35,783 nucleotides of DNA, from the UHGV virus genome UHGV-0117379; one strand, 5' to 3'. How positions within the stretch are numbered: position 1 is the stretch's first letter; every line of letters begins with the position of its first letter. Source of the DNA: a virus. The notes under the pieces were generated by a model, which made no database searches, was not told where the DNA came from, and saw nothing but the letters and a program-made list of their open reading frames with translations. The translations under genes and the position numbers were made by a program. Below, piece after piece: positions 3,167-28,510 of the stretch.

Positions 3167-3676
3167 ATGTTTGATTACCAAGTTTCCAAACATCCACATT
3201 TTGATGAAGCCTGTCGTGCATTCGCACTGCGCCACAATCTGGTGCAACTGGCAGAACGTGCGGGCATGAATGTGCAGATTCTGCGGAACAAGCTGAACCC
3301 AGCTCAACCTCATTTATTAACCGCACCAGAAATCTGGCTGCTTACCGATCTGACTGAAGATTCAACGTTGGTAGATGGTTTTCTGGCACAGATTCATTGT
3401 CTGCCATGTGTACCGATTAATGAGGTAGCAAAAGAGAAACTGCCACATTACGTCATGAGTGCAACCGCAGAGATCGGGCGTGTTGCTGCAGGTGCGGTAT
3501 CTGGCGATGTAAAAACCAGTGCAGGTCGTCGTGATGCTATCAGCAGCATTAACTCTGTAACACGACTGATGGCGCTGGCGGCTGTTTCATTGCAGGCCCG
3601 TTTACAGGCTAATCCTGCGATGGCGAGTGCAGTTGATACCGTGACTGGCCTCGGTGCTTCATTCGGTTTGCTGTGA
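3167..3676 (+). CDS. cII: Phage CII-type regulator (186 CII-like)
   Basis: Track ORF starts at TTG 3158; ATG 3167 (GGAG RBS) gives 169 aa beginning [20 protein letters not shown], which I remember as closely matching 186 CII. Confidence 0.8.
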
Positions 3677-3683
3677 GGTGCTT

Positions 3684-3980
3684 ATGCTGACGAAAGAACC
3701 ATCATTTGCATCGCTGCTGGTAAAACAAAGCCCGGCAATGCACTACGGTCACGGCTGGATCATGGGTGAGGATGGTAAACGCTGGCATCCGTGCCGTTCA
3801 CAAGATGAATTGCTGTCTGAATTGACCACGGGGAAACGGAGAAAGTCAAAATGTATGCAGCGGAAAGTGAAGTGGTTTATCAGTTTCGTTACAGAGGGGA
3901 GAGTTATTCAGTACCTGAAGATGATTTGCTCTGTTGTTATCCGTCGTTGTCGGGCGATGGCAGTTACTTTTTCACGCTAA
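3684..3980 (+). CDS. Hypothetical early protein
   Basis: ATG 3684 follows GAGGTG RBS directly after the cII stop. The second half of this frame is Cys/Arg-rich and low in complexity and overlaps ORF 3851..4075, so the 3' extent is uncertain. Confidence 0.4.
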   Translation: MLTKEPSFASLLVKQSPAMHYGHGWIMGEDGKRWHPCRSQDELLSELTTGKRRKSKCMQRKVKWFISFVTEGRVIQYLKMICSVVIRRCRAMAVTFSR

Positions 3981-4439: not shown

Positions 4440-4506
4440 CCAGCTAATGAAATTAATGGCGTAAACCCGCCGGGCATCCCTTTATCTAAATTCAGGAGAA
4501 TTGATT

Positions 4507-5266: not shown

Positions 5267-6120
5267 GCACCATCCTGAAATGGGCGGGTAATAAAACCAC
5301 CATTATGTCCGAACTGAAAAAATACCTTCCTGCTGGCACGCGACTGGTTGAACCTTTCGCGGGTTCTTGTGCTGTGATGATGGAGACGGATTACCCCAGC
5401 TATCTGGTTGCGGATATTAATCCTGATTTAATCAACCTCTATAAAAAGGTTGCTGCTGATTGTGAGGCGTTTATATCTCGTGCCAGAGCTTTATTTGAGG
5501 AAGCAAACAGAGAGGTGGCTTATTACAACATAAGGCAGGAGTTTAATTACTCCACTGAAATTACTGATTTCATGAAAGCGGTATATTTTCTGTATCTCAA
5601 TCGTCATGGTTACCGTGGGCTATGTCGCTATAACAAGAGCGGGTATTTCAACATTCCCTACGGTAATTATAAAAATCCGTATTTCCCTGAAAAAGAAATT
5701 CGCGCATTTGCAGAGAAAGCCCAGCGGGCAACGTTTATCTGCGCCAGCTTTGATGAAACGCTGGCGATGTTGAAGGCGGGGGATGTGGTGTATTGCGATC
5801 CGCCTTATGACGGTACGTTTTCCGGCTATCACACTGATGGCTTCACTGAAGATGACCAGTATCACCTGGCATCCGTTCTTGAACATCGATCATCTGAAGG
5901 TCATCCGGTCATTGTTTCTAACAGTGACACATCCCTGATCCGTTCGCTGTATCGCAATTTTACTCACCACTACATCAAGGCAAAACGCAGCATCGGCGTG
6001 GCAGCTGGTGAGAGTAAATCTGCAACAGAAATCATCGCTGTTTCCGGGCCGCGCTGCTGGGTAGGATTTGATCCTTCGCGTGGCGTGGATTGTTCCGTCG
6101 TGTACGGAGTGCGTGCATGA
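5263..6120 (+). CDS. dam: DNA adenine methyltransferase (Dam family, N6-adenine)
   Basis: N-terminal LKWAGNK...PFAGS AdoMet motif and catalytic DPPY motif ([10 protein letters not shown]); ATG 5263 overlaps the previous stop; AGGAGGTG RBS. Confidence 0.85.
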
Positions 6121-8531
6121 GCCATGCTGATATGAACAACTGCAGCGGCTTTAACGAGGTCGCCGCAGCATTCTCATGGAACAGCCCGAAAAAGGCCATT
6201 AACCCTTATCTGGACCCGGCGGAAGTTGCGCCGGTTTCTGCGCTTTCAAACCTGATCACTCTGTACGCTGCCGATAACGAGCAGGAACAACTGCGCCGCG
6301 AGGCACTGAGTGATCAGGTCTGGGAGCGTTATTTCTTTAATGAATCCCGTGATCCTGTCCAACGCGAAATGGAGCAGGATAAGCTAATTAGCCGGGCAAA
6401 GCTGGCGCATGAGCAGCAGCGTTTTAATCCAGACATGGCCATTCTGGCGGACGTCAACGCCCAGCCTTCCCATATCAGCAAGCCGCTGATGCAACGTATT
6501 AAATACTTCAGCAGCCTGGGCAGGCCAAAGGCTTATTCCCGCTATTTGCGTGAGACGATTAAGCCATGCCTGGAACGACTGGAGCATGTACGCGACAGTC
6601 AGCTATCCACTTCTTTTCGCTTTATGGCAAGCCATGAAGGGCTGGACGGCCTGCTGATCCTGCCTGAAATGAGTCAGGATCAGGTGAAACGCCTGTCCAC
6701 CTTGGTAGCTGCGCATATGAGCATGTGCCTTGATACAGCTTGTGGCGATTTGTATGCCACCGATGATGTTACGCCAGAAGAAATCCGCAAGACATGGGAA
6801 AAGGTGGCAGCGGAAACCCTGCGTCTGGATGTTATCCCGCCTGCGTTTGAGCAACTCCGTCGGAAAAGAAACCGCCGTAAACCCGTGCCTTATGAACTCA
6901 TTCCTGGTTCGCTGGCGCGTATGTTATGCGCCGACTGGTGGTATCGGAAATTATGGAAGATGCGTTGCGAATGGCGGGAAGAGCAGTTGCGTGCTGTTTG
7001 CCTGGTCAGCAAAAAAGCATCTCCCTATGTCAGCTATGAAGCCGTGATGCATAAACGTGAGCAGCGCCGTAAGTCGCTGGAGTTTTTCCGTTCTCATGAA
7101 CTGGTGAACGAAGACGGCGACACGCTGGATATGGAAGACGTGGTAAACGCCAGCAGCAGCAACCCTGCGCATCGCCGCAATGAGATGATGGCCTGTGTTA
7201 AAGGTCTGGAGCTTATCGCGGAAATGCGCGGTGACTGCGCCGTTTTCTACACCATCACCTGTCCGTCACGTTTCCATTCCACGCTAAATAACGGCAGGCC
7301 CAACCCGACCTGGACAAATGCGACGGTAAGACAAAGCAGTGATTATCTGGTCGGTATGTTTGCTGCATTTCGTAAGGCGATGCACAAAGCCGGATTACGC
7401 TGGTATGGCGTGCGGGTGGCTGAGCCGCATCATGACGGTACAGTTCACTGGCACCTGTTGTGTTTTATGCGCAAAAAAGATCGCCGCGCCATTACTGCTT
7501 TGTTGCGTAAGTTTGCCATTCGTGAAGACCGCGAGGAGCTGGGTAATAACACGGAACCACGCTTTAAGTCTGAGCTGATAAACCCGCGCAAAGGTACGCC
7601 AACAAGCTACATCGCGAAATACATCAGTAAGAACATTGACGGGCGTGGTCTGGCTGGCGAGATCAGCAAGGAAACGGGTAAATCCCTGCGTGATAACGCC
7701 GAATACGTTAATGCCTGGGCGTCTCTGCATCGTGTTCAGCAATTCCGCTTCTTTGGCATTCCGGGGCGTCAGGCTTACCGTGAACTGCGATTGCTGGCTG
7801 GTCAGGCGGCAAGGCAACAGGGGGACAAAAAAGCAGGTGCGCCGGTACTGGATAACCCGCGCCTTGATGCCATCCTGGCTGCCGCTGATGCTGGCTGTTT
7901 TGCCACCTACATCATGAAGCAGGGCGGCGTACTGGTTCCCCGCAAATATCACCTCATCAGAACCGCTTATGAAATCAACGAAGAGCCGACCGCCTATGGC
8001 GATCACGGTATTCGTATTTATGGCATCTGGTCACCCATTGCAGAGGGCAAGATCTGCACTCATGCGGTGAAGTGGAAAATGGTTCGTAAGGCCGTTGACA
8101 TTCAGGAGGCGGCAGCCGACCAGGGCGCTTGCGCCCCTTGGACTCGTGGCAATAACTGTCCCCTTGCTGAAAATTTGAACCAACAAGGGAAAGACAAATC
8201 AGCTGATGGGGATACCAGAACGGAGATCACCCGCATGGATGACAAGGAGTTGCACGATTACCTGCACAGTATGAGCAAAAAAGAGCGCCGGGAACTGGCA
8301 GCAAGGTTACGCCTGGTGAAACCGAAATGGCGTAAAGACTACAAACAGCGAATTACAGAGCATCAGCGTCAGCAGCTCGTCTATGAACTGAAGTCCAGAG
8401 GATTTGATGGCAGCGAGAAAGAGGTCGATCTGCTCCTTCGCGGTGGCAGTATTCCGTCAGGAGCAGGCCTGCGTATCTTCTATCGGAACCAGCGTTTGCA
8501 GGAAGATGATAAGTGGCGGAACCTGTATTAA
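6117..8531 (+). CDS. A: Replication initiation endonuclease (P2 gpA-like, rolling-circle HUH type)
   Basis: ATG 6117 overlaps the dam stop; HUH-like motif HWHLLCF and paired-tyrosine motif [10 protein letters not shown]; about 800 aa, at the P2 gpA position. Confidence 0.85.
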
Positions 8532-8684: not shown

Positions 8685-8873
8685 ATGCAGGACTATTTTT
8701 TGGAGTCTTTGAAGCTCCAGCGCATTGATTTTTTTCTTAAGCTTGTAGCGGCTAGTGAGTGTAGTGATGAAGAGAAGGGGCTGGCTTTGCAATGGGTTTC
8801 TGAACTGACAGATGAACTCATGGCAAAAATCAGAACCCACGAATACAACCGCTCAATGGATGTCATCAGCTGA
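8685..8873 (+). CDS. Hypothetical small protein (62 aa), first gene of the LexA-box unit
   Basis: ATG 8685 with AGGAGG RBS (track ORF starts upstream at 8583). Confidence 0.5.
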   Translation: MQDYFLESLKLQRIDFFLKLVAASECSDEEKGLALQWVSELTDELMAKIRTHEYNRSMDVIS

Positions 8874-8883
8874 GGTGACTTTT

Positions 8884-9117
8884 ATGCGCATTGAAATAAT
8901 GATCGATAAAGAGCAGAAGATTAGCCAGTCTACCCTGGACGCCCTTGAATCCGAGCTTTACCGCAATCTGCGCCCCCTGTATCCCAAGACGGCGATCCGC
9001 ATTCGCAAAGGCAGTGCCAACGGTATCGAGTTGACCGGCTTAAAACTTGATGAGGATAAGCAGCGGGTAATGGAAATTATGCAGCAGGTCTGGGAAGACG
9101 ACAGCTGGCTGCATTAG
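8884..9117 (+). CDS. DinI-family protein (Tum-like SOS module)
   Basis: ATG 8884 with GAGGTGA RBS; MRIEIMID...KQRVMEIMQQVWEDDSW resembles E. coli DinI (MRIEVTIAK...KQRISEILQETWE), recalled from memory. Confidence 0.75.
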   Translation: MRIEIMIDKEQKISQSTLDALESELYRNLRPLYPKTAIRIRKGSANGIELTGLKLDEDKQRVMEIMQQVWEDDSWLH

Positions 9118-9403: not shown

Positions 9404-9622
9404 ATGTCAAGTATCGCCGCATTGAAGCTGGGTAATCCAGTTGAACGTTTGGCACGGGTTCTGAAAGAGAACCAGGACAAGCTCAATCTGAGTAAAGATG
9501 GTTTTGTGTCCGTAGATTTGTCCAACGAAGAAGCTATGAAAGCCATCCGAGATCAGATGGATAAGCTTGAAGGCATCAAAACGAGCACTGTTAAAGCAAA
9601 ATATTATTACAGAACCCGATAA
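9404..9622 (+). CDS. Hypothetical small soluble protein (72 aa)
   Basis: ATG 9404 with AAGGAGGGG RBS; stop overlaps the next start (TAATG). Confidence 0.6.
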   Translation: MSSIAALKLGNPVERLARVLKENQDKLNLSKDGFVSVDLSNEEAMKAIRDQMDKLEGIKTSTVKAKYYYRTR

Positions 9623-10464
9623 TGGCAACATTACTTTTAGCAGTGATTTTGGTTAGTGGTTTTATATATGTAAACCTATCACTTTCAACACGTTATAGAT
9701 ATAAGCGTTCCAATGGCTGGGACGCTTATTTTTTTGTGGCTGCATGGGGAATTGTCTTTTTCCTCGCTGGCGGCTTCCTTACCTTCGCTCTTAACATCAG
9801 CGGTGGGTTTCGCTGGTTTTCTAATGCGCTGAATCTGACTCCAGACAGCTTTAACGGGATGTTATCCACCACAACCGATAAACCGCAGCGCATCAATGAA
9901 ATTAAGCAAATCGCGTGGGTTGTGATTTCAATAGTTCTCGCGGCGCTGTTCGGTTGGCTAAACAAACGCCGTACTTCAAAAGGGGATCGCCGTTGGGATG
10001 CACTGGCAAAGGCAGTGGGAAACAATGCTTTTGAATCGCTGCTCATGGAAGCATCAGCTCGCCAGTTTCCTATCATTGCTACACTTTCATCACGCAAAAT
10101 CTATGTAGGGCTGGTGACTTGCCCTGCGTTGGAAAATGGATTGTCGGAACACCTTGAAATTCTCCCCTTGCTGAGCGGATATCGTGATAAAGACGACCTA
10201 ACGATAAATATCACGACAAACTATCATCAGCACTATCTTGATAGCGGTGTTATCAATGGGATGTCGCGCCTGAATATCCAGGATTTCCGTGTGCTTCTCC
10301 CTAAAGATGAAGTTGAAACCATCTCGTTTTTTGATACTGAAACGTATAACAAATTTAAAGAAAACGAAGCGCGTGACCGGAAAGACTGCCGCAAGTTGGG
10401 TGGTAAAAAGCCATCCGCACGCAGGAGAAAGACTGCTGGCGACGCAGAGCAGGGTAGTGCATGA
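9622..10464 (+). CDS. Membrane protein with three predicted N-terminal TM helices, unknown function
   Basis: Hydrophobic segments LLLAVILVSGFIYV, AYFFVAAWGIVFFLAGGFLTFAL and IAWVVISIVLAALFGWL, then a roughly 170-aa soluble domain; AT-rich. Confidence 0.65.
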   Translation: MATLLLAVILVSGFIYVNLSLSTRYRYKRSNGWDAYFFVAAWGIVFFLAGGFLTFALNISGGFRWFSNALNLTPDSFNGMLSTTTDKPQRINEIKQIAWVVISIVLAALFGWLNKRRTSKGDRRWDALAKAVGNNAFESLLMEASARQFPIIATLSSRKIYVGLVTCPALENGLSEHLEILPLLSGYRDKDDLTINITTNYHQHYLDSGVINGMSRLNIQDFRVLLPKDEVETISFFDTETYNKFKENEARDRKDCRKLGGKKPSARRRKTAGDAEQGSA

Positions 10465-10512
10465 CTATGCTGCATGAATTTGCATGATCGTTTGAGGATC
10501 GTTTTAGCTCCG

Positions 10513-10537
10513 GCCCGCCAGTTCAGGCGGGCTTTTT
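10513..10537 (+). terminator. Rho-independent terminator (GCCCGC-loop-GCGGGC followed by TTTTT)
   Basis: Read directly: stem 10513-10518/10527-10532, T-run 10533-10537, about 50 nt after the membrane-protein stop. Confidence 0.6.
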
Positions 10538-10581
10538 CATATCTCATGCAGGTGCATGAAAACCACTACACAAAGCGGGCA

Positions 10582-10600
10582 GGCGTGGCGGGGATACGAG
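10582..10600. other. Putative cos cohesive-end sequence GGCGTGGCGGGGATACGAG
   Basis: First 13 nt identical to the P2/186 cohesive-end consensus GGCG(A/T)GGCGGGGAAAGCA as I remember it (15/19 to 186). Preceded by five copies of TGCATGA. Confidence 0.4.
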
Positions 10601-10665
10601 CGCGCGCTCATTACTTTTATAATTCTAGGGTTATAATACAGGGCTATCTTTCTAGGAGAAAACAC

Positions 10666-12318
10666 ATGTCCTTAGAGTTTATCAAAGAACAGTTGTCAGA
10701 TTTTATCTCATCTACAGAACCAGAAGTAATGGCTATACAGGGTGAATGGGGAATTGGTAAAACCTATACTTGGAATACGTTCCTAAAAGATAATAAAGAT
10801 AAGGTTGCATTTAATAGATATAGTTATGTCTCTCTTTTTGGTATAAATTCACTAGATTCTTTAAAGTATTCTATTTTTGAGAATGCAATTACAAAGGAAT
10901 ATATTGGAAATAAACCTGATTTGGAGACAGCAACAACAAACGCAAGTGGACTTTTTGAATCGTTTTCTCGAAAAGCCGCAGGTTTGTTAAAAGAAGCTCC
11001 TGTTGTAAAAAACTTCTCTACGACACTTGAAGCAATGTCATTTCTGACCGTTTCTAAAATGATTGTAGTAATAGATGACTTAGAAAGGCGTGGCAAAAAC
11101 TTAGATGTTAAAGATGTTTTAGGGCTAGTATCTCTATTAAAGGAGCAGAAGGATTGTAAGGTGGTTCTATTGCTTAACAATGGCACAGCTAGTATGGAGG
11201 ATTATTCTACTTATAAAGAAAAGGTCATTGATAGAGATATCACTTACAATCCAACACCAGAAGAATGCGCAGATATAGCCTATAAAGGTGATTTTCATGT
11301 TTATAACTTGTTAAGTAAATATTCCATTTCTTTAGGTATCAAGAATATTCGAATCTTAAAAAAGATAGAACGTTTTTTCGTGTCCTTAACACCAAATATT
11401 ATAGGTGATGTTGAGACAATTTCAAATGAAGTTGCGCATTCATTAACTCTGTATTGTTGGAGCCATTACGGATTTTCTCCAGAGGGAGATGTGCCATCAC
11501 TAGAATATATTAGGGGAGTGAGGAATATATATACTTATAATGACAAGGAAGAAGGCCATGAGAAAGTCTGGCTTAATACCTTGCTTAAATATGGATATAG
11601 AAAAACGAATGATCTTGATGAGGTTCTTATTGATATGGTTAGATATGGCTATCTTGATAAGAGCAGTTTCCAAAGACAAATAAGCCTAAGGAATGAGGAG
11701 ATTACGCGTGATAATAAACGAGGTTCCTTATCTGAGGCATGGCAGTTCTTTCATAATTCATTTGATGACAATCAAAATCAGGTTGTTGACAAGCTATATC
11801 AAGCGGTGGTTGATGGGATGAAGTATGTGACTCCAAGTGATTTAGATAATGTTGTCGGACTATATAGGGATTTCGGAGAGAATGCTAAGGCGAGTGAATT
11901 GATTGAACAGTTTATTAATTATGGTAACGATGCTCTAAAGGAATATGTTCAATCTATTTATGTGAATGTTCATCCCGTAAGAGATGCTGAGTTGTTGTCA
12001 AAAATTCAAGCCTATTCTAATATTATAAATATTGATGGTTCAATATATGATGTTCTTAAGAAATTATCAGGTCAGAATGGTTGGTCTGATAGACATGAGG
12101 AAATATTGGATGCTGCTTCAGTAGATGACTACTATCAATTATTTAAAAATGTCATTCTTGATGGTGGTGATTCAATAATAGCTACGGCGCTTAAATTCGG
12201 AAATTATAGTAATGGTTCTGATAGAATGAATCGTATAGGGAAAAAGGCAAGGGATGCCTTGATAAGAATTGGAGATGAATCGGCGATTAATAAAATACGT
12301 GTAAGGCGATTTTTGTGA
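10666..12318 (+). CDS. KAP-family P-loop NTPase (candidate defence cargo)
   Basis: ATG 10666 with AGGAG RBS (track ORF starts at 10474). Walker A GEWGIGKT and KAP-type Walker B VVIDDLERR; AT-rich; own TATAAT boxes (10618-10623, 10632-10637) and a downstream terminator. Confidence 0.75.
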   Translation: MSLEFIKEQLSDFISSTEPEVMAIQGEWGIGKTYTWNTFLKDNKDKVAFNRYSYVSLFGINSLDSLKYSIFENAITKEYIGNKPDLETATTNASGLFESFSRKAAGLLKEAPVVKNFSTTLEAMSFLTVSKMIVVIDDLERRGKNLDVKDVLGLVSLLKEQKDCKVVLLLNNGTASMEDYSTYKEKVIDRDITYNPTPEECADIAYKGDFHVYNLLSKYSISLGIKNIRILKKIERFFVSLTPNIIGDVETISNEVAHSLTLYCWSHYGFSPEGDVPSLEYIRGVRNIYTYNDKEEGHEKVWLNTLLKYGYRKTNDLDEVLIDMVRYGYLDKSSFQRQISLRNEEITRDNKRGSLSEAWQFFHNSFDDNQNQVVDKLYQAVVDGMKYVTPSDLDNVVGLYRDFGENAKASELIEQFINYGNDALKEYVQSIYVNVHPVRDAELLSKIQAYSNIINIDGSIYDVLKKLSGQNGWSDRHEEILDAASVDDYYQLFKNVILDGGDSIIATALKFGNYSNGSDRMNRIGKKARDALIRIGDESAINKIRVRRFL

Positions 12319-13377: not shown

Positions 13378-15143
13378 CAAAAAATCTCCACAATATTACT
13401 GGTATTGGCGGACTCGCCCTGCAGTGGTTCGTTAAACAGTGCGTGCATTGTTGCCCACGCCAGATCGGCGTGGCTGGTTTCTTCGCTGCGGCTGGCTTCA
13501 TACGTCGGGCGGTTGCCACTGGCGGTGGTGGCGCGACGGATTGCCATGAATGACTGCGCAATGTCGGTGTGCCCGGCGTCAAACTCCAGACGGCGGTGGC
13601 TGATAATGTCGTAGGCCTTGAGTACCAGAGCGTTTTTAACGTTGGGGTTGTAGACAAACTCCCGGACGGCAGGAAAAAACGCTTTCACGTTCTCGTAAAC
13701 CCCGTGACCGACGCCGGTTGAGTCGATACCGATGTATGTCACGTTGTACTGTTCAGTCAGTTTTTTGATGGCGTCAGCCTGGGCGCGGAAGTCCATCCCG
13801 CGCCACTGGTGACGCTCAAGAATGCGGAACTTACCGCCCGGCACGGCTGGCGGTGCCACCACCACGCACCCGGCGCTGTCGCCGTTTTGCGTACCTTTTG
13901 CCGGGTCATAACCGATCCACACTTCGCGCCAGCCAAACGGGCGCAGGGCCAGTGCATGAAAGTCGGTCCAGACTTCCCAGCTGTCCACCATGCACGCCTG
14001 CAGCTCGCTGAGCGGAAACACGGACGCGAGATCGTCCACAAACTCGCACATCAGCAGGTTCTGGTATTCGTCCGGGCTGTACTCCATGCGCAACTGGTCG
14101 AGATCGAACAGGTTACATCCGCCGCGCACAGCATCTTCCACGGTGACTATCTGGCGGTATTGCCCGTCTGCGCACAGCAGGCCGGGGGCCAGATTGCTGT
14201 GGGACAGGTCGATGTCCACCTTATCGGCTTTGTTGCGCCCACGGTTGAACAGCGCACCGGACCAGAACGGATAAGCACTGTGTGTCAGGCTGGATGGTGT
14301 GGAAAAATAGGTTTGTCGCCATTTTTTGTGAATAGCCATACCGGAAGCCACTTTGCGCAGCTCCTGGAATTTCGGTATCCAGAAATATTCATCCAGATAC
14401 AGGTTGCCGTGGTAACTCTGGGCCGTGCGGGCATTGGTGCCGAGGAAGTAAAGCGTAGCCCCGTTAGGAAGCACCATCGGATCGCCTTTCAGCTCCACTT
14501 CCACTTCTTTGGCGAAGTCGATGATGTACTGTTTAAAGACGTGGGCCTGTGCCTTACTGGCGGAAAGGAAAATCTGGTTACGTCCGGTAAGCAGGGCGTC
14601 AATCAGGGCTTCACGGGCAAAGTAAAAGGTCGCGCCGATCTGGCGTGACTTCAGCAGGTTGCGGATGCGGTTGGTTTTTCCGGCTTCCCACCAGTGGCGC
14701 TGGTAGTTGAACATGGAGGAATGGAAGATTTCTTCCAGCTTCGCAATCTGTTCATCGGTGAAAACGTTCTTTTCCGGCTGACGACGCGGGCCTTTGTTGC
14801 GGTTGGCGACGTTAGGGTTTAAGTCGGCTTCGTTGCCGCCATTGTTAAACTTGCCGATCCGCGCGTGGCGCTCCGACTGGCGCGCCAGCAGGTCAATCTC
14901 TTTGAAATCTTTCCCTTCTTTGTGCTCCTTCATGATGAGCTGGCAGTAGCGTGCGGCGGTGGTGAGCTGCATCTGATCCAGCGGCCCATAGTCACCCCAC
15001 TTGTCGCGTTTCTTCCAGCTGTGAACGGTTGCAACTTTCTCGCCCAGCATTTCAGCAATGCGGGCTACGCGATATCCCTGAAAGTACAGCAGCATGGCCT
15101 GCCGACGGGGATCGAGATCTGCGGATGTCAGTGTGGTGTTCAT
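13377..15143 (-). CDS. P: Terminase large (ATPase) subunit (P2 gpP-like)
   Basis: 588 aa, ATG 15143; immediately upstream of Q on the same strand and divergent from the O operon, as in P2. Confidence 0.85.
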   Translation of the reverse strand: MNTTLTSADLDPRRQAMLLYFQGYRVARIAEMLGEKVATVHSWKKRDKWGDYGPLDQMQLTTAARYCQLIMKEHKEGKDFKEIDLLARQSERHARIGKFNNGGNEADLNPNVANRNKGPRRQPEKNVFTDEQIAKLEEIFHSSMFNYQRHWWEAGKTNRIRNLLKSRQIGATFYFAREALIDALLTGRNQIFLSASKAQAHVFKQYIIDFAKEVEVELKGDPMVLPNGATLYFLGTNARTAQSYHGNLYLDEYFWIPKFQELRKVASGMAIHKKWRQTYFSTPSSLTHSAYPFWSGALFNRGRNKADKVDIDLSHSNLAPGLLCADGQYRQIVTVEDAVRGGCNLFDLDQLRMEYSPDEYQNLLMCEFVDDLASVFPLSELQACMVDSWEVWTDFHALALRPFGWREVWIGYDPAKGTQNGDSAGCVVVAPPAVPGGKFRILERHQWRGMDFRAQADAIKKLTEQYNVTYIGIDSTGVGHGVYENVKAFFPAVREFVYNPNVKNALVLKAYDIISHRRLEFDAGHTDIAQSFMAIRRATTASGNRPTYEASRSEETSHADLAWATMHALFNEPLQGESANTSNIVEIF

Positions 15144-15189
15144 GGCACAAACCTACAGCCTTGAATGAAGGCTTTCCCCGCCTGCGGTT

Positions 15190-15207
15190 TGTGTGGTTGT
15201 CGGTACA
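15190..15207. promoter_or_regulatory. Ogr-type late-promoter dyad TGT-N12-ACA in the P/O divergent region
   Basis: TGTgtggttgtcggtACA read directly; centre about 87 bp upstream of the O start codon. Confidence 0.5.
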
Positions 15208-19748: not shown

Positions 19749-19881
19749 CGGTGATCTGAACGCATTGCTGGATGAAACGGAGGCCGCCTGGGCGGTCTGT
19801 GCAGACAAAGTGGACATGATTATTGCGTGTCAGGAGCGAAACAGTGAACAAACCACAGTCCCTGCGCCACGCCATCAATAA
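19591..19881 (+). CDS. lysC: Outer-membrane lipoprotein spanin (P2 LysC / Rz1-like), embedded in lysB in another frame
   Basis: GTG start with GAGGA RBS; lipobox LTLSGC; overlaps the lysB 3' end. Confidence 0.6.
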   Translation: MRTRIYAAGLILLCLLTLSGCGNVRHLPEVQLTVSGCPRVTPCRLEQAAPRTNGDLNALLDETEAAWAVCADKVDMIIACQERNSEQTTVPAPRHQ

Positions 19882-20275
19882 AGCAGTGCCTTATGTCCGC
19901 AATAACCCGGACAAACTGCATCTGTTTGTGGATAACGGTTCGCTGGTTGCCACGGGGGCCAGCTCCATGTCATGGGAGTACCGCTATACCCTGAACGTGG
20001 TGATAGAGGATTTCAGCGGCGACCAAAATTTGCTGATGGCCCCGGTTTTACTGTGGCTGCGGGATAACCAGCCCGATGCCATCAATAACCCGGCGTTACG
20101 GGAAAAGCTATTCACCTTTGAGGTGGATATTCTGCGCAACGATGTCTGTGATATCAGCCTTAACCTGCAACTGACGGAACGTGTGCTGGTCAGCACTAAC
20201 GGCAGTGTGTCGAGCGTTGAAGCTATAGCGGAACCTGATGAACCTGAAGAAATGTGGACGGTGAAACGTGGCTGA
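19844..20275 (+). CDS. R: Tail completion protein R (P2 gpR-like)
   Basis: Track ORF starts at TTG 19823; GTG 19844 follows CAGGAGC RBS and aligns with the P2 R N-terminus as I recall it. Confidence 0.75.
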   Translation: MNKPQSLRHAINKAVPYVRNNPDKLHLFVDNGSLVATGASSMSWEYRYTLNVVIEDFSGDQNLLMAPVLLWLRDNQPDAINNPALREKLFTFEVDILRNDVCDISLNLQLTERVLVSTNGSVSSVEAIAEPDEPEEMWTVKRG

Positions 20276-20732
20276 ATTGCAGAAAGTGGACGACTGGCTG
20301 AGTGCCTTGCTGGCGAATCTGGAACCAGCCGCCAGAAGCCGCATGATGCGCCAGCTGGCGCAGGAACTGCGCCGGACACAGCAGCAGAATATCAGGATGC
20401 AACGCAATCCTGATGGCAGCAGCTATGAACCGAGGCGAGTAACAGCACGCAGTAAAAAAGGCCGCATCAAACGGCAGATGTTTACAAAACTTCGCACCAC
20501 AAAATACCTGAAAACCGCCGCCAGCGCGGATTCTGCCAGCGTACAGTTTGAAGGTAAGGTGCAGCGCATCGCCCGCGTTCACCTTTACGGCCTGCGTGAT
20601 CGCGTCAGTCGAAAAGGACCGGAGGTCCGTTATGCAGAGCGTCGTTTGTTAGGCATTGCTGAAAAAGAACAAAGTTTTATATTTTACACATTAATCAGTT
20701 GGTTACAGGAAAAGGGAGGGTTGCATAAGTGA
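20268..20732 (+). CDS. S: Tail completion / virion morphogenesis protein S (P2 gpS-like); C-terminus possibly chimeric
   Basis: GTG start overlapping the R stop; the last 25 or so codons are AT-rich like the adjacent moron. Confidence 0.75.
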   Translation: MAELQKVDDWLSALLANLEPAARSRMMRQLAQELRRTQQQNIRMQRNPDGSSYEPRRVTARSKKGRIKRQMFTKLRTTKYLKTAASADSASVQFEGKVQRIARVHLYGLRDRVSRKGPEVRYAERRLLGIAEKEQSFIFYTLISWLQEKGGLHK

Positions 20733-20782
20733 GTTTATTTTACTTCAATGAAAATATAAAATCTGCTATATATAAAAACATT

Positions 20783-20791
20783 TGTTATAAT
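20783..20791 (+). promoter_or_regulatory. Extended -10 element TGTTATAAT for the moron NTPase gene
   Basis: TG-N-TATAAT read directly, about 30 bp upstream of ATG 20820; weak -35. Confidence 0.45.
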
Positions 20792-20819
20792 GATATGATT
20801 TTCTTAAGGATAGGATGTT

Positions 20820-22331
20820 ATGCGCCCCAAAATTGGTGATTTTGAATTTGGTGAGGTTTATGGAGAGAATGAGGTATTATTTCTCGATAATTACTCGAAA
20901 TATTTTTATGATATAAATAATTCATTAAGTAAACTTGATAGAAAAAATAAAATGCTCGTAATTGGCAGGAAGGGGACGGGTAAGACATTGCTTGTTAATG
21001 TCTACTGTAACGCCAAGCGAAAAAATAATTATATTGCAGTTGTGGAATCATTAAAAGATTTTGTTTTTCATGAACTTACTCACTTTCAGGGGCAGGATGT
21101 GTCTTCCACAAAATATGTACCAATTTTCAAGTGGATGATATTGGTCAATCTTGCTAAGAATATTGTAAGTAATAAAAAAGGATTTAGTGAGGATAAAATA
21201 GTTCATTTGGAAAGTTTTTTACGTTCTTTTGGCCATGTCGCGGGCGAGTTAAGGCCTGAGCAAACAGTTGAAATAACTAGGGAGTACCAAGCGTCGGGTG
21301 AGGTTGGTATCGGATTTAGATTCCCAGTATTACGTGGTGAAGCCAAAGCAAAAGATGGTGAGGTCGAGAAAACAAAAGAAACAAAAAAGAATTATTTGGA
21401 ATGTATGGAATCTTTGCAGTGTTTTATTGTTGACATGCTAAAAGAGAGTAATAAAAAAATATATGTATTTTATGATGAGTTAGATGATAAGTTTGATGCA
21501 ACAGTTGAATATAAAAATGCAATGATAAGTTTTTTAAATGCTGTTGTGTCAATTAATAAAACTCTAATGCAAAATAAAATAGATGCTAAAATTGGTGCAG
21601 TTATTCGTCATGATATAATAAATACTTTTTCATCGCCGAATATTAATAAAATCATTGAAGATAACTCTGTTACACTTGATTGGTGTTCTGCTGGAGAACG
21701 AGCAAGTGATTCTGAGATTTTTGATATGATTGCTTTTAAGATCAAAAACTCCACTGATTATTATAATGATTTAAATGGTTCTAATTTGTTCGGGAAAATT
21801 TTCACTGAGAGAGTTGCAGGTGAGCATAGCTCTATTTATATTTTACATAGAACTCTAGGTCGCCCAAGAGATGCCGTTAGGATGCTAACTTATATTCAAG
21901 ATGAATATGGAGAAAATACTGAAAGATTTGAAAGTTCCATGTTTACAAAGATTTCTAAAAAATACTCATCTTATCTTTTACGTGAAATTAGATCTGAGCT
22001 TGCGGGACATTTAAGTGATTCAGAAATAGATGACAGTTTTTCTCTTTTACGTTCAGTAAAAAAAAGAGGTTTCACTCCACATTTAATCAAGGAAAAATTT
22101 GAAGAATTGAAGTTAGGAGATGGTACATTAACGCTTAATAAAATACTGAGTTGTTTATTTAAAGTCGGTGCTATCGGGAATGTACTCAGGAGATCTAAAA
22201 CAGATGGCGGAGATGTTTATTTGTGGTCATTTAATGATGAAGATTTAGAAATGGACCCAACGTTGAATTTTGAAATACACTGTGGTTTGTGGGATGCACT
22301 AGGAATTATCAAGCCTAAACTTAGGCAATAA
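20820..22331 (+). CDS. P-loop NTPase (503 aa), candidate single-gene defence moron
   Basis: Walker A GRKGTGKT and Walker B IYVFYDELDD; AT-rich; own promoter and a perfect terminator; inserted between S and V. Confidence 0.8.
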   Translation: MRPKIGDFEFGEVYGENEVLFLDNYSKYFYDINNSLSKLDRKNKMLVIGRKGTGKTLLVNVYCNAKRKNNYIAVVESLKDFVFHELTHFQGQDVSSTKYVPIFKWMILVNLAKNIVSNKKGFSEDKIVHLESFLRSFGHVAGELRPEQTVEITREYQASGEVGIGFRFPVLRGEAKAKDGEVEKTKETKKNYLECMESLQCFIVDMLKESNKKIYVFYDELDDKFDATVEYKNAMISFLNAVVSINKTLMQNKIDAKIGAVIRHDIINTFSSPNINKIIEDNSVTLDWCSAGERASDSEIFDMIAFKIKNSTDYYNDLNGSNLFGKIFTERVAGEHSSIYILHRTLGRPRDAVRMLTYIQDEYGENTERFESSMFTKISKKYSSYLLREIRSELAGHLSDSEIDDSFSLLRSVKKRGFTPHLIKEKFEELKLGDGTLTLNKILSCLFKVGAIGNVLRRSKTDGGDVYLWSFNDEDLEMDPTLNFEIHCGLWDALGIIKPKLRQ

Positions 22332-22332
22332 T

Positions 22333-22359
22333 AAAAACGCCCTTTAATAGGGCGTTTTT
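22333..22359 (+). terminator. Rho-independent terminator, perfect 11-bp stem AAAAACGCCCT/AGGGCGTTTTT
   Basis: Read directly; 5-nt loop TTAAT; begins 2 nt after the moron stop codon. Confidence 0.75.
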
Positions 22360-22393
22360 ATTTAAAGTTGTCATTCTTTCTTTAAATTATCAT

Positions 22394-22411
22394 TGTGCCA
22401 AATCTCTTACA
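22394..22411. promoter_or_regulatory. Ogr-type late-promoter dyad TGT-N12-ACA upstream of V
   Basis: TGTgccaaatctcttACA read directly; its centre is about 55 bp from the V ATG, which is tight for a -55 element. Confidence 0.4.
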
Positions 22412-22457
22412 ATTCTAAATAGATGAATTAGTCTTTGTTCTGTTTGATAATTTGGAA

Positions 22458-23036
22458 ATGAATACACAACTGACAGAAATCATGCGCCTTATCACCAACC
22501 TGATCCGCACTGGTGTAGTCACCGAAGTGGACAGGGAAAACTGGCTTTGCCGGGTGAAAACAGGCGACTTAGAAACCAACTGGATCAGCTGGCTGACCCT
22601 GCGTGCCGGGAATGCCCGGACATGGTGGCGACCATCGGAAGGTGAGCAGGTGGTGCTGCTGAGTCTGGGCGGCAATCTGGAGACCGCCTTTGCGCTGCCC
22701 GCTGTCTATTCGAATCAGTTCGCACCACCGTCGACGTCGGCGGACGCCTGCGTGACAGAACATCCTGACGGTGGCTGGTTTGAATACGAACCCGCCACCG
22801 GGCGCTGGTATGTCAGGGGCATCAAATCCATGGTTATTGAGGCTGCCGACAATATCACCCTGAAAACCAGTGAGTTTGTGCTGGAGGCTGACCGCACGCG
22901 TATTAATAGTGAAGTAGTGATCAATGGCGGCGTTACCCAGGGCGGCGGTGCGATGAGTTCTAACGGAATTGTGGTTGATGCACATCAGCATACTGGCGTC
23001 CTGAAAGGCGGCGACACAACCGGAGGCCCGGTATGA
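22458..23036 (+). CDS. V: Baseplate assembly protein V (spike; P2 gpV-like)
   Basis: ATG 22458 (track ORF starts at TTG 22452); size and position match P2 V. Confidence 0.8.
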   Translation: MNTQLTEIMRLITNLIRTGVVTEVDRENWLCRVKTGDLETNWISWLTLRAGNARTWWRPSEGEQVVLLSLGGNLETAFALPAVYSNQFAPPSTSADACVTEHPDGGWFEYEPATGRWYVRGIKSMVIEAADNITLKTSEFVLEADRTRINSEVVINGGVTQGGGAMSSNGIVVDAHQHTGVLKGGDTTGGPV

Positions 23037-24885: not shown

Positions 24886-26435
24886 GCACAAAATTTTATA
24901 CCCTGCTGACGGATATTGGCGCGGCGAAACTTGCCAGCGCCGCCGCGCTCGGTGTGCCTTTAAAAATTACCCATATGGCGGTCGGCGATGGCGGCGGAAC
25001 ATTACCAACGCCGGACGCAAAGCAGACAGCACTGGTAAATGAGAAACGCCGGGCTGCGCTGAATATGCTCTATATCGACCCGCAGAACAGCAGCCAGATT
25101 ATTGCTGAACAGGTGATCCCTGAAAACGAGGGCGGTTGGTGGATACGTGAAGTGGGCCTGTTTGATGAGTCCGGGGCATTGATTGCCGTGGGCAACTGCC
25201 CGGAAAGCTATAAGCCGCAACTGGCTGAAGGCAGCGGGCGTACCCAGACCGTGCGTATGGTGTTGATTACCAGCAGCACGGACAATATCACCCTGAAAAT
25301 CGACCCTGCCGTAGTGCTGGCAACCCGCAAGTATGTGGATGATAAGGTACTGGAGCTGAAGGTGTACGCGGATGATCAGATGGCAAAACATCTTGCCGCA
25401 CCGGACCCGCATTCACAGTATGCACAGAAAGAAAGTCCTACGTTTACCGGGACACCCAAAGCGCCAACGCCAGCGGCGGGGAATAACACCACGCAGGTTG
25501 CGACCACCGCGTTTGTTCAGGAGGCACTGACGGCTCTTATTAATGGTGCGCCAGCCACGCTGGACACGCTGAAAGAAATAGCCGTAGCCATTAACAATGA
25601 TCCGAAATTCAGTACCACCATTAACAATGCGCTGGCACTGAAAGCGCCGCTGTCGAGTCCGGCACTCACCGGAACGCCAACAGCCCCCACGGCGGCGCAG
25701 TCGGTCAACAATACACAGATTGCCACCACGGCTTTTGTGAAATCGGCGATTGCGGCAATGGTGGGTTCTGCACCTGCGGCACTGGATACACTGAACGAAC
25801 TGGCGGCGGCGCTGGGGAATGACCCGAACTTTGCCACGACAATGCTTAATGCACTGGCAGGTAAACAACCGCTGGACAATACGCTGACTAATTTGAGTGG
25901 AAAGGATGTTGCTGGTCTTCTCGCATACCTTGGTTTGGGAGAAGGCTCTGCATTACCTGTTGGTGTCCCTGTTCCGTGGCCTTTAGCAACTCCGCCAACA
26001 GGCTGGTTGAAATGCAACGGTGCGCCATTTATCGCCTCCCAATATCCGAAGCTTGCTCTCGCTTACCCCGGTCTTTTGCTGCCAGACCTGCGCGGTGAAT
26101 TTATTCGTGGATGGGATGATGGGCGAGGGGTTGATCCAGGGCGTTCGATAGGGTCTAGCCAGGGATGGTCTCCAGGATCGCACGTCCACGGCTTGGAAAT
26201 TTGGACATCGGCTAGCGGCAGCATCCCAACTAGTACAACTGTACCATCGCAGAACGGTAGGGAGTTAGGGCCAGCAGCGACAGCAGGCGACGGCGGCGTT
26301 ATCCGATCACTTGGCGGCAGCGGCGGGACAAACAACAACTCTGCTACTTCTGTGACTACGCAGAGCCCCACCTTTGGAAACCAAGAAGGTTACCCGCGCA
26401 ACGTCGCATTTAACTATATCGTGAGGGCAGCCTGA
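24882..26435 (+). CDS. H: Tail fibre protein H; C-terminal segment lies inside the invertible region
   Basis: 517 aa at the P2 H position; crossover site at 25918-25943 lies within the coding sequence. Confidence 0.8.
   Translation: MSTKFYTLLTDIGAAKLASAAALGVPLKITHMAVGDGGGTLPTPDAKQTALVNEKRRAALNMLYIDPQNSSQIIAEQVIPENEGGWWIREVGLFDESGALIAVGNCPESYKPQLAEGSGRTQTVRMVLITSSTDNITLKIDPAVVLATRKYVDDKVLELKVYADDQMAKHLAAPDPHSQYAQKESPTFTGTPKAPTPAAGNNTTQVATTAFVQEALTALINGAPATLDTLKEIAVAINNDPKFSTTINNALALKAPLSSPALTGTPTAPTAAQSVNNTQIATTAFVKSAIAAMVGSAPAALDTLNELAAALGNDPNFATTMLNALAGKQPLDNTLTNLSGKDVAGLLAYLGLGEGSALPVGVPVPWPLATPPTGWLKCNGAPFIASQYPKLALAYPGLLLPDLRGEFIRGWDDGRGVDPGRSIGSSQGWSPGSHVHGLEIWTSASGSIPTSTTVPSQNGRELGPAATAGDGGVIRSLGGSGGTNNNSATSVTTQSPTFGNQEGYPRNVAFNYIVRAA
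25918..25943. repeat. Invertase crossover site (hix/gix-like, left), inside H
   Basis: TTCTCGCATACCTTGGTTTGGGAGAA; its 3' 14 nt are the exact reverse complement of part of the right site; central dinucleotide TT. Confidence 0.6.
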
Positions 26436-27037
26436 TGAATAAAGCCGTATTAAATAGCGAACTCATTACTACAAAGGCAGGAAACATTACCGTTTATAAT
26501 TTTGATGCTGAGACGAAGGAATATCTTTCCACATCAACCGAATACCTTGCTGTGGGTGTCGGTATTCCGGCGTATTCATGCTTAGATGCACCAGGTACAC
26601 ATAAAGCCGGTTATGCAATCTGCCGCTCTGCAGATTTTAACTCATGGGAATATGTGCCAGACCATCGCGGTGAAATCATCTATAGCACCGAAACAGGAGA
26701 ATCGAAAGAAATCACATCTCTGGGTGATTACCCTGAAAATACAACCACTATCGCCCCGTTAACGCCATATGATAAATGGGATGGTGAGAAATGGGTGACG
26801 GATACTGAGGCACAGCATAGCGCCGCAGTAGAAGCGGCAGAAGCACAGCGCCAGTCACTGATTGATGCAGCAATGTCTTCCATCAGTCTGATTCAACTGA
26901 AATTACAGGCCGGACGGAAGCTGACGCAGGCAGAAACAACCCGACTTAACGCTGTGCTGGATTATATTGACGCGGTGACGGCAACAGATACCAGCACCGC
27001 GCCTGATGTCATCTGGCCTGAACTGCCGGAGGCGTAG
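26435..27037 (+). CDS. G: Tail fibre assembly protein (P2 gpG-like)
   Basis: 200 aa immediately after H; start overlaps the H stop. Confidence 0.75.
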   Translation: MNKAVLNSELITTKAGNITVYNFDAETKEYLSTSTEYLAVGVGIPAYSCLDAPGTHKAGYAICRSADFNSWEYVPDHRGEIIYSTETGESKEITSLGDYPENTTTIAPLTPYDKWDGEKWVTDTEAQHSAAVEAAEAQRQSLIDAAMSSISLIQLKLQAGRKLTQAETTRLNAVLDYIDAVTATDTSTAPDVIWPELPEA

Positions 27038-27449
27038 GCCATTCAATATCTGGCGCACCGGAAGTATCGACCAGTTCCAGTGCGTCCAGATAATCCAGCC
27101 ACAAATTATATTGCACCAGTTCCTCACCTTTCAGGCGACCAATCGCCGCTTTACCAGGCCATTGCTTACTGTTTATGTATTCGTTGACCTGATTAATCAA
27201 TTGCTGCTTTTTCAGTTCGGCTGCGGCAATTTGTTCCTCATGAGTTGGCGGTGGAATATCAATCCATGCAGGCATTCCGTCGATGACACCTCTGTATTTT
27301 CCTTCTGGTGCTTCCTTCATAAATTCGGCAGCAACAGTGTCGTCAATTTCGATTCCATCATCGGGCCATTCGCCGGATTCCTGATAAGCGATTTTAAGCT
27401 CCACAGGGAAAAACGCATTTTTATCGGCACTGAAAATATATTTCTGCAT
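27009..27449 (-). CDS. Alternative tail fibre assembly protein (inverted orientation)
   Basis: 146 aa, convergent with and overlapping G by 29 nt; C-terminus VDTSGAPDIEWP parallels the G C-terminus TDTSTAPDVIWP. Confidence 0.7.
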   Translation of the reverse strand: MQKYIFSADKNAFFPVELKIAYQESGEWPDDGIEIDDTVAAEFMKEAPEGKYRGVIDGMPAWIDIPPPTHEEQIAAAELKKQQLINQVNEYINSKQWPGKAAIGRLKGEELVQYNLWLDYLDALELVDTSGAPDIEWPTPPAVQAR

Positions 27450-27451
27450 TT

Positions 27452-27811
27452 CTACCGTCCTATCGAAATATAACTGAATCTGTATTGCTGTGAGATATCA
27501 CTGGTTGCCACACGCCACGCTGAATTACTGATATGTTCAAAATTTACAGACAAAACCTGCGGGGCAGGAATCGACGGGTCTGACTGAACGGCATCAGACA
27601 TAACACTGACTGAAACCATCGGCTGATTAGGGAATGGTATAGGGAAGTGTCCACTGATAAAGCGGGTCGTGTTTCCTGAAAAAGTGCCAAACTGAACAAT
27701 ATATCCACCTGGTAGCCTGAACCATCCCGAACCAGAAGCGAATGCTCCCATATCCGGTATCTGATTATCTCCTGTGCCCACATCCCTTTTCGCCGCTTCT
27801 CCCAAACCAAC
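27452..27811 (-). CDS. Alternative tail-fibre C-terminal cassette (promoterless; fuses to H after inversion)
   Basis: Minus-strand frame shares GLGE with H at the crossover and is in the same codon phase relative to the central TT/AA dinucleotide; track ORF 27452..27850 adds a spurious N-terminus. Confidence 0.6.
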   Translation of the reverse strand, partial: VGLGEAAKRDVGTGDNQIPDMGAFASGSGWFRLPGGYIVQFGTFSGNTTRFISGHFPIPFPNQPMVSVSVMSDAVQSDPSIPAPQVLSVNFEHISNSAWRVATSDISQQYRFSYISIGR

Positions 27812-27822
27812 GTTTAAGAAAA
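27797..27822. repeat. Invertase crossover site (hix/gix-like, right), next to the invertase gene
   Basis: TTCTCCCAAACCAACGTTTAAGAAAA resembles the Hin/Gin 26-bp site as I remember it (TTCTTGAAAACCAAGGTTTTTGATAA); central AA. Confidence 0.6.
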
Positions 27823-27877
27823 TGCAGAGGTAACAGCTAACTGGCATCATCTCCGGTTTTTATTCAGGGGGATGATC

Positions 27878-28444
27878 ATGCTTATTGGCTATGTACGCGT
27901 GTCAACAAATGACCAGAACACCGATTTGCAACGTAATGCACTGAACTGCGCGGGATGTGAGCGGATTTTTGAGGACAAAATCAGTGGCACTAAGTCCGAC
28001 AGACCGGGGCTGAAAAAACTACTCAGGACACTATCGGCAGGAGACACGCTGGTTGTCTGGAAGCTGGACAGGTTGGGGCGCAGTATGCGGCATCTTGTTA
28101 CGCTGATAGAAGAGTTGCGCCAGCGTGGTGTGAATTTCAGAAGCCTGACTGACAGTATTGATACCAGTACCCCAATGGGCCGTTTCTTTTTTCATGTCAT
28201 GGGTGCCCTAGCTGAAATGGAACGCGAACTGATAGTTGAACGTACCAGGGCGGGGCTGGCTGCAGCTCGTGATAAAGGCAGAGTAGGTGGACGCCGTCCT
28301 AAGTTGACCACCGAACAGTGGGCACAGATTGGACGCTTACTCGAGGCCGGAGAATCAAGACAGCGTATTGCACTGATTTTTGATGTGGGTGTTTCCACAA
28401 TTTATAGAAAATTTCCGGCAAATAAGAGTAATGAATCCCCCTGA
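27878..28444 (+). CDS. Serine recombinase DNA invertase (Hin/Gin/Cin/Pin family)
   Basis: MLIGYVRVSTNDQNTDLQRNAL... is near-identical in pattern to the Gin/Hin N-terminus including the catalytic Ser region; ATG 27878 preferred over 27872 on RBS spacing. Confidence 0.9.
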   Translation: MLIGYVRVSTNDQNTDLQRNALNCAGCERIFEDKISGTKSDRPGLKKLLRTLSAGDTLVVWKLDRLGRSMRHLVTLIEELRQRGVNFRSLTDSIDTSTPMGRFFFHVMGALAEMERELIVERTRAGLAAARDKGRVGGRRPKLTTEQWAQIGRLLEAGESRQRIALIFDVGVSTIYRKFPANKSNESP

Positions 28445-28492: not shown

Positions 28493-28510
28493 TGTGTGAA
28501 TAACGACACA
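28493..28510. promoter_or_regulatory. Ogr-type late-promoter dyad TGT-N12-ACA upstream of FI
   Basis: TGTgtgaataacgacACA read directly; centre about 85 bp upstream of the FI ATG. Confidence 0.5.

Follow-up and report, generated by a model that had tools for sequence, protein, structure and literature searches.

Cargo between genes S and V of a P2-like prophage probably travels with the 3' end of S and a late promoter of its own

The DNA analysed here, a stretch of 35,783 nucleotides from UHGV virus genome UHGV-0117379 (the window), is a P2-like prophage. Between its tail genes S and V lies an AT-rich segment, 20645-22457, which most probably is a 1.8-kb module swapped between related P2-like phages by homologous recombination. 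The module would start 88 nt before the stop codon of S, not after S, and would comprise, in this order, the S tail, a spacer with a possible promoter, a gene for a Sll1717-family ATPase, a terminator and its own copy of P_V. It would occupy the gap between two late operons, where the P_O operon ends with S and the P_V operon starts with V. One crossover would take place in the conserved body of S, often ending at about codon 126, the other at the very start of V. The unit that moves would be the cargo together with the last 28 codons of the essential tail gene S and a late promoter. The elements are:

19823-20275, plus strand: gene R, tail completion protein (Pfam PF06891 P2_Phage_GpR, E = 2.1e-46)
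20268-20732, plus strand: gene S, 154 codons, GTG start
20268-20644, plus strand: S body, codons 1-126, 377 nt, resident backbone type
20645-20732, plus strand: S tail, codons 127-154 (LLGIAEKEQSFIFYTLISWLQEKGGLHK) and stop codon, 88 nt, probably cassette-borne
20733-20819, plus strand: spacer from S to the cargo gene; contains a putative extended -10 element, TGTTATAAT, at 20783-20791
20820-22331, plus strand: cargo gene, 503-aa P-loop ATPase of the Sll1717 family (NCBIfam NF047389)
22330-22362, plus strand: rho-independent terminator hairpin followed by a T run, at the 3' end of the cargo gene
22394-22411, plus strand: TGT-N12-ACA dyad (TGTGCCAAATCTCTTACA), predicted Ogr-type late-activator site of P_V
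22458-23036, plus strand: gene V, baseplate spike (PF04717, PF18946)

The S gene, the start of which is overlapped by the 3' end of R, is not uniform in composition. The GC content is 0.568 in the body and 0.330 in the tail (Fisher p = 7.9e-5), and in this respect the tail is indistinguishable from the remainder of the AT-rich block, 20733-22457 (GC 0.315, p = 0.81). For the window as a whole the value is 0.508; the profile falls from ~0.57 to ~0.32 near 20645 and rises again at ~22460. Outside the block only 3.9% of 88-nt segments are equally AT-rich, and these are located in other accessory or regulatory regions. The original prediction had S ending in the peptide listed above, as it does, and had claimed that about 25 AT-rich codons at this end match the downstream cargo. 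The match in composition stands; the length does not, as the AT-rich part opens at codon 127, the first L of an LLG motif, and runs for 28 codons.

The comparison with sister prophages lacking the insert, which had been suggested as a check, locates the break precisely. As cargo-free sisters E. coli CFT073 and Klebsiella phage Kp4878-2 were used. Over 600 nt upstream of S the window is 95-96% identical to both, and over the S body 94%. A change-point analysis puts the break at S nt 377, i.e., 20644/20645 of the window (likelihood-ratio statistic 110.7). Here DNA identity falls in a one-base step from 0.94 to 0.36. S is thus a mosaic, as had been claimed, and its break is the left edge of the cargo block.

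At the right edge a phage element is found inside the AT-rich cassette. The four late promoters of P2 share the consensus TGT-N12-ACA (PMC3931495); S closes the P_O operon and V opens the P_V operon (PMC3931495; annotation of the P2 record). In the window, the dyad TGTGCCAAATCTCTTACA starts 64 nt upstream of the V ATG. Of 25 related loci examined, 22 have a dyad at -63 to -66, whether or not they carry cargo and although the flanks are unrelated; by this conserved distance the window dyad is placed as in a P2-type late promoter P_V. Altogether the window contains seven such dyads, four of which are at the positions expected for P_P, P_O, P_V and P_F. Those besides P_V are:

15132-15149 and 15190-15207: two TGT-N12-ACA dyads between the divergent terminase and scaffold genes, fitting P_P and P_O
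28493-28510: TGT-N12-ACA dyad upstream of the sheath gene, fitting P_F

In cargo-free relatives, the dyad is also 64 nt before the V ATG, yet just 4 nt past the S stop codon. This leaves almost no neutral DNA for an insertion. Within V, the first 360 nt are 93-96% identical to the cargo-free sisters; upstream of the ATG there is no identity. The initial 18 nt of V agree with the sister cassette L042 and not with the cargo-free sisters. Backbone-type DNA returns at the V ATG or within ~18 nt after it, and this is the probable right recombination joint.

L042, a Logan contig (SRR534364) with the 88% sister cassette, is informative with respect to the history of the tail. R, the S body and V of the window are 94-96% identical to cargo-free CFT073 and 74-82% identical to L042. 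Between window and L042 the cargo is 86% and the S tail 74% identical. The backbone of L042 is unusual: upstream of R (contig positions 1-1207) it has DprA-like and phosphoribosyltransferase-like genes and lacks the usual lysis genes. The exact tail of the window is found only beside this cargo, and tail and cargo occur together in records from E. coli, Klebsiella and Salmonella. In the Salmonella S protein P0055, the window's tail family is joined to a SopEPhi-like body. Five diverged lineages of ATPase cargo (100, 88, 73, 70 and 69% identity) are all situated between S and V, and all have AT-rich S tails. In these five lineages tail identity parallels cargo identity (Spearman 0.90, for 10 non-independent pairs). 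The identity of the S bodies correlates with cargo identity as well (0.85), therefore part of this pattern is plain co-descent.

Such co-divergence, with AT-rich tails in lineages down to 69% cargo identity, would also be expected if a resident S tail had turned AT-rich in place beside the cargo, for example through mutation bias in a rarely recombining flank, or because silencing by nucleoid proteins was favoured. Several cargo-linked tails, e.g., VNDDVETVIQDALLNWLQR, are near-canonical in protein and AT-richer in DNA, which agrees with such a drift. The window junction does not. Flanks with 94-96% identity to cargo-free sisters abut a tail with 36-42% identity in a single-base step, and the same tail is joined to different S bodies. 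Because the flanks have diverged by only ~5%, the divergence of the tail is too large for a build-up in place. Drift is an unlikely origin of the junction, though it may account for the composition which the module has acquired over long times. The AT-richness of the edges could come from an AT-rich ancestor or from long-term drift of a rarely recombining flank. Scanning viral contigs with a degenerate tail DNA pattern did not reveal a donor phage with a fully AT-rich S and the window's tail. The pattern, ATTGNTNAAAAAGAACAA, produced 120 mostly chance matches in AT-rich contigs, and a local tblastn retained one, which was the same cassette.

Close cargo-free relatives end in ...AERRLLGVNDDVEAMTRDIILQWLAG, the window S ends in ...AERRLLGIAEKEQSFIFYTLISWLQEKGGLHK. 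In both, the spacing from LLG to WL is 15 residues, while the codons differ: LLG is TTG TTA GGC in the window versus CTT CTG GGT, and WL is TGG TTA versus TGG CTG. The canonical counterpart of the window stretch IAEKEQ...HK is VNDDVEAMTRDMILQWLAG. Tails intermediate between the window type and the canonical type, IHDKEYYQIKDTLLEWLSE and IGKKEQYLIYDTLLFWLHG, exist among 120 close S homologues. The window protein belongs to the S family over its full length including the C-terminus. PF05069 (Phage_tail_S) scores 135.6 bits (cut-off 24.3, E = 1.5e-39) and aligns residues 3-146 with profile positions 2-147 of 148; TIGR01635 (tail_comp_S) scores 114.8 bits (cut-off 37.65, E = 3.2e-33) over residues 3-145.

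The tail was further compared in fixed register (BLOSUM62) with eight cargo-free S tails, from Escherichia/Klebsiella, SopEPhi, P2, Atlantibacter, Franconibacter, Stutzerimonas, Pseudomonas and Pseudoduganella. The mean score was 11.6, versus -14.2 +/- 7.0 for shuffled tails (z = 3.7, p = 1e-4); without the WL anchor p was 0.0024. Of 1256 stop-free peptides from all six frames of the cassette, none scored as high. AlphaFold predicts a helix at residues 132-149 with a pLDDT of ~84 within an otherwise poor model (pLDDT 64.6, pTM 0.28). This model is unfit for a fold search, and only the confident C-terminal helix is used here; searching the solved structures with the S sequence gave no relevant match. 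Judged by sequence, the window tail is a diverged but homologous S tail, not foreign filler. As part of the explanation which we consider most probable, cassette codons 127-154 would encode another allelic form of the C-terminal helix of S. We infer that the tail alleles are functionally equivalent, i.e., that the window tail, though diverged, presumably does the work of the normal S ending. Had the prediction been wrong, S proteins of unrelated P2-like phages should share the C-terminus of the window; what they have in common is motif and register, not the sequence, and this test thus goes halfway against the prediction.

These data bear directly on the literal reading of the prediction, in which foreign AT-rich DNA, inserted illegitimately, removed the true 3' end of S and fused the gene to unrelated sequence that stays open by chance for 28 codons. 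The sharp step of composition and identity inside S is compatible with it, so are the 6 residues by which the window S exceeds the usual 148, and a truly truncated S, ending at residue 127, does exist (L029, below). Against it, LLG, the spacing and WL are in register, the similarity to distant S tails has p ~1e-4 with 0 of 1256 cassette peptides as high, the Pfam and TIGRFAM alignments extend to residues 146 and 145, and all 16 cargo clusters of the survey described below keep the same tail frame. In addition, at the opposite edge a phage element, the P_V dyad, is in its proper place. An unrelated fusion is very unlikely and appears largely refuted, being already contradicted by Pfam coverage, the in-register test and the P_V dyad. 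With S-family homology and register preserved in the tail, exchange of a whole module fits better than an insertion that clipped S. Of the original claim that cargo insertion replaced the S 3' end, the chimeric nature of S, the junction and the composition and history common to S 3' end and cargo are supported, and an insertion of unrelated DNA is not; on the mechanism the claim was only partly right.

L029 (Enterobacter sp. Cy-643) is a contrast case which illustrates what a truly truncated S looks like. Its S homologue (record positions 3501-3884) stops at residue 127 (...VMYALDSC) and has no LLG...WL. Its downstream genes are unrelated, an ORF there (6074-6322) encodes an Ogr-like zinc finger, and V was not found. 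L029 may be a remnant or a satellite.

The terminal 6 or 7 residues of the window S, EKGGLHK, overrun the usual S end. A recent read-through of an ancestral stop codon was considered as their origin and rejected, since the tail of the 88% sister cassette is extended, too (WLHGKGRL). Klebsiella phage Kp4865-2 has TAA at 4442-4444 where the window has GAA at 20709-20711; its S, from a record labelled unverified, stops at ...WLQ and lacks EKGGLHK. A recent change to a stop codon in Kp4865-2 appears more likely than a read-through in the window. If Kp4865-2 is viable, the 7-residue extension is dispensable. A further peculiarity is in the S body. At residue 106 (window 20584) the window copy alone has L (CTT), a private H106L change; all other copies of the cassette-bearing S and at least 90% of 52 aligned homologues have H at this position, which adjoins the invariant H105. 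In the window S, H106L may be a sign of prophage decay.

The generality of the window arrangement was examined in 106 S-V loci of related phages, collected from species genomes, IMG/VR, E. coli genomes and phage records. Sixty-one are cargo-free, with S-V gaps of 65-68 nt and a tail GC of 0.50-0.63. Of these, 59 are close relatives and have a single tail type, VND[DE]VE..TRD..L.WLAG. The other 45 carry cargo, with gaps of 550-2229 nt and a gap GC of 0.31-0.39. All 45 have non-canonical tails, mostly with a GC of 0.20-0.48. A tail GC below 0.50 does not occur in any of the 61 cargo-free loci, and a value above 0.50 occurs in just one cargo-bearing locus. Within this survey, an AT-rich S tail is a simple marker for cargo downstream. 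The cargo sequences form 16 clusters. No tail allele is common to two of these, and the tail frame is kept in every one. For eight different cargoes, that of the window included, the left breakpoint is at S nt 374-377; others are at S nt 341, 387 and 399-409. Even inside one cargo cluster the replaced S stretch varies from 3 to ~12 codons (L018/L025 versus L081/L062). Among 52 S proteins picked to represent different tails, column entropy is 0.2-0.6 bits for residues 1-129 and 2.2 bits for residues 130-147.

The S C-terminal helix might be matched to the cargo module, for instance if defence proteins encoded at this site detect the S tail of superinfecting relatives and the resident has an escape allele, or if the AT-rich tail and P_V together are a regulatory frame needed for silencing and expression of the cargo. 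We regard this as highly improbable.

The breakpoint at S nt 374-377 shared by eight cargoes might, on the other hand, be taken as the signature of a self-mobile or site-specific cassette, transposon- or integron-like, which targets the neighborhood of S codon 126. A 13-nt imperfect inverted repeat, AAAAAGAACAAAG / CTTTGTTCTGTTT, at 20662-20674 and 22433-22445 would suit such an element. This repeat is absent from the sister cassette L042 and is judged to be a chance occurrence. Terminal inverted and direct repeats were searched in eight cassettes and none was consistently above chance: in the seven others terminal repeats are no better than in shuffled sequences, and there are no direct repeats. 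The cassette consists of one gene and has neither recombinase nor transposase; the breakpoints at S nt 341, 387 and 399-409 do not conform to a fixed target, and transposable elements are almost absent from such hotspots (PMC13586616). A self-mobile cassette is extremely unlikely, although it is conceivable that the breaks recurring at codon 126 mark a specific site and not the edge of a conserved block. Equally remote is a functional coupling in which each cargo needs, or tolerates, no S-tail allele but its own, e.g., a defence which senses the S tails of incoming relatives and spares the resident variant: that no tail allele is common to two of the 16 clusters and that the tail is the most variable part of S (2.2 versus 0.2-0.6 bits, in a set chosen for different tails) would be in line with it, yet physical linkage alone accounts for the association, the replaced stretch varies between 3 and ~12 codons within one cargo cluster, the unrelated P_V promoter edge shows equal cargo-linked divergence, and cargo-free phages show no tail diversity.

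Swapping of a module by recombination between related phages accommodates both edges. The S tail and P_V are too diverged for crossovers to occur within them, so both would travel with the cargo. From the sequence patterns we infer homologous recombination as the simplest route of transfer. The S variant should then not be annotated as damage, and the boundaries of defence islands in P2-like prophages belong inside S. Engineering of the S-V site would have to preserve both the LLG...WL tail and the dyad 64 nt upstream of V.

The block carries the marks of a moron: its flanking genes are adjacent in 61 relatives, its GC content is deviant, and it has a terminator of its own; a promoter of its own may lie at 20783-20791. 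Morons and mosaic joints in lambdoid phages are reportedly a concept of Hendrix and Juhala. Lambdoid morons are extra genes between genes that are adjacent in relatives, with deviant base composition and their own terminator, and in lambdoid mosaics novel joints can fall inside coding sequences. Different from these, both edges here are located in functional phage elements which are kept in diverged form, and the unit of exchange would be larger than the moron gene.

The S-V site itself is well known. As the orf30 region, it is one of three classical moron regions of P2-like phages, beside tin/old (TO) and Z/fun (PMC6823313). It is the same site between tail-completion gene S and baseplate gene V and likewise holds AT-rich, non-essential cargo which differs between otherwise similar phages (PMC6823313). 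The P2 record annotates an O-operon terminator, Orf30, an activator site and pV; the cargo of the window is a 503-aa Sll1717-family ATPase, not Orf30. In the literature on the orf30 moron region we did not find a description of a block which reaches 88 nt into S and brings its own P_V. Rapid swapping of cargo has been reported for P2/P4 hotspots (PMC9122126, PMC13586616), including a tail-gene defence hotspot in P2 (PMC13586616). There, too, cargo turns over fast between near-identical backbones, and exchange via homologous recombination in flanking genes has been proposed (PMC9122126, PMC13586616). These studies deal mainly with gene content and with the GpA-GpQ hotspot next to cos; breakpoints inside S and co-transfer of S tail and P_V are not resolved in them. 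The proposed S-V cassette swap would be an ordinary footprint of cargo exchange between related P2-like phages, and the view of how these phages evolve is not changed by it. What is added to a known hotspot is a modest detail, i.e., that the variable unit appears to include the S tail and P_V and that breakpoints recur.

The cargo protein is a clear member of NF047389, with 271.8 bits (cut-off 75) over residues 10-494 and profile positions 1-454 of 454. An annotated copy of the cassette already exists in E. coli ATCC 8739, and the RefSeq name agrees with a Sll1717-family P-loop ATPase. Outside the S-V site, a homologue in Enterobacter adjoins DarT/DarG and a phospholipase-like gene, another in Providencia adjoins a prophage integrase. 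These genomic contexts make a defence role plausible, and the ATPase is a probable anti-phage defence gene. DS-41 is a validated anti-phage system (PMC13092281); the cargo does not belong to its family NF053860, which it matches with 26 bits (cut-off 370) in the N-terminal NTPase part only. PADLOC system models gave no significant match to the cargo, the best being PDC-M28C with 13.4 bits (E = 0.0065), and a literature search on the name Sll1717 found no paper.

The putative -10 element TGTTATAAT occurs once in the window. A consensus promoter scan flagged no site at 20783-20791, and conservation of the element and its spacer in the sister cassettes (88% and 83%) is only partial. A 36-codon ORF from GTG 20729, spotted by eye behind a Shine-Dalgarno-like AAGGGAGGG, was rejected since it is not conserved in L042. 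The terminator consists of a perfect 14-nt inverted repeat with a 5-nt loop; its fold energy is -20.7 kcal/mol (z = -6.7), and the hairpin is kept in L042. An Rfam scan of 20400-22600 yielded just sub-threshold matches on this hairpin.

The prophage has a second AT-rich cargo block at 9622-12318, between replication gene A and portal gene Q, where the classical TO hotspot lies. This block encodes a 280-aa protein without a family match and a 614-aa KAP-family P-loop NTPase which matches the PADLOC candidate PDC-S49 (E = 5.7e-28). A likely invertible tail-fibre segment spans 26435-28444 with the following genes:

26435-27037, plus strand: fibre assembly gene
27009-27449, minus strand: fibre assembly gene
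27452-27850, minus strand: alternative fibre C-terminus, oppositely oriented, beside the invertase
27872-28444: serine invertase (Resolvase and HTH_7)

Finally, downstream of the replication gene there is a DinI-like gene at 8812-9117 (PF06183, E = 2.7e-24).
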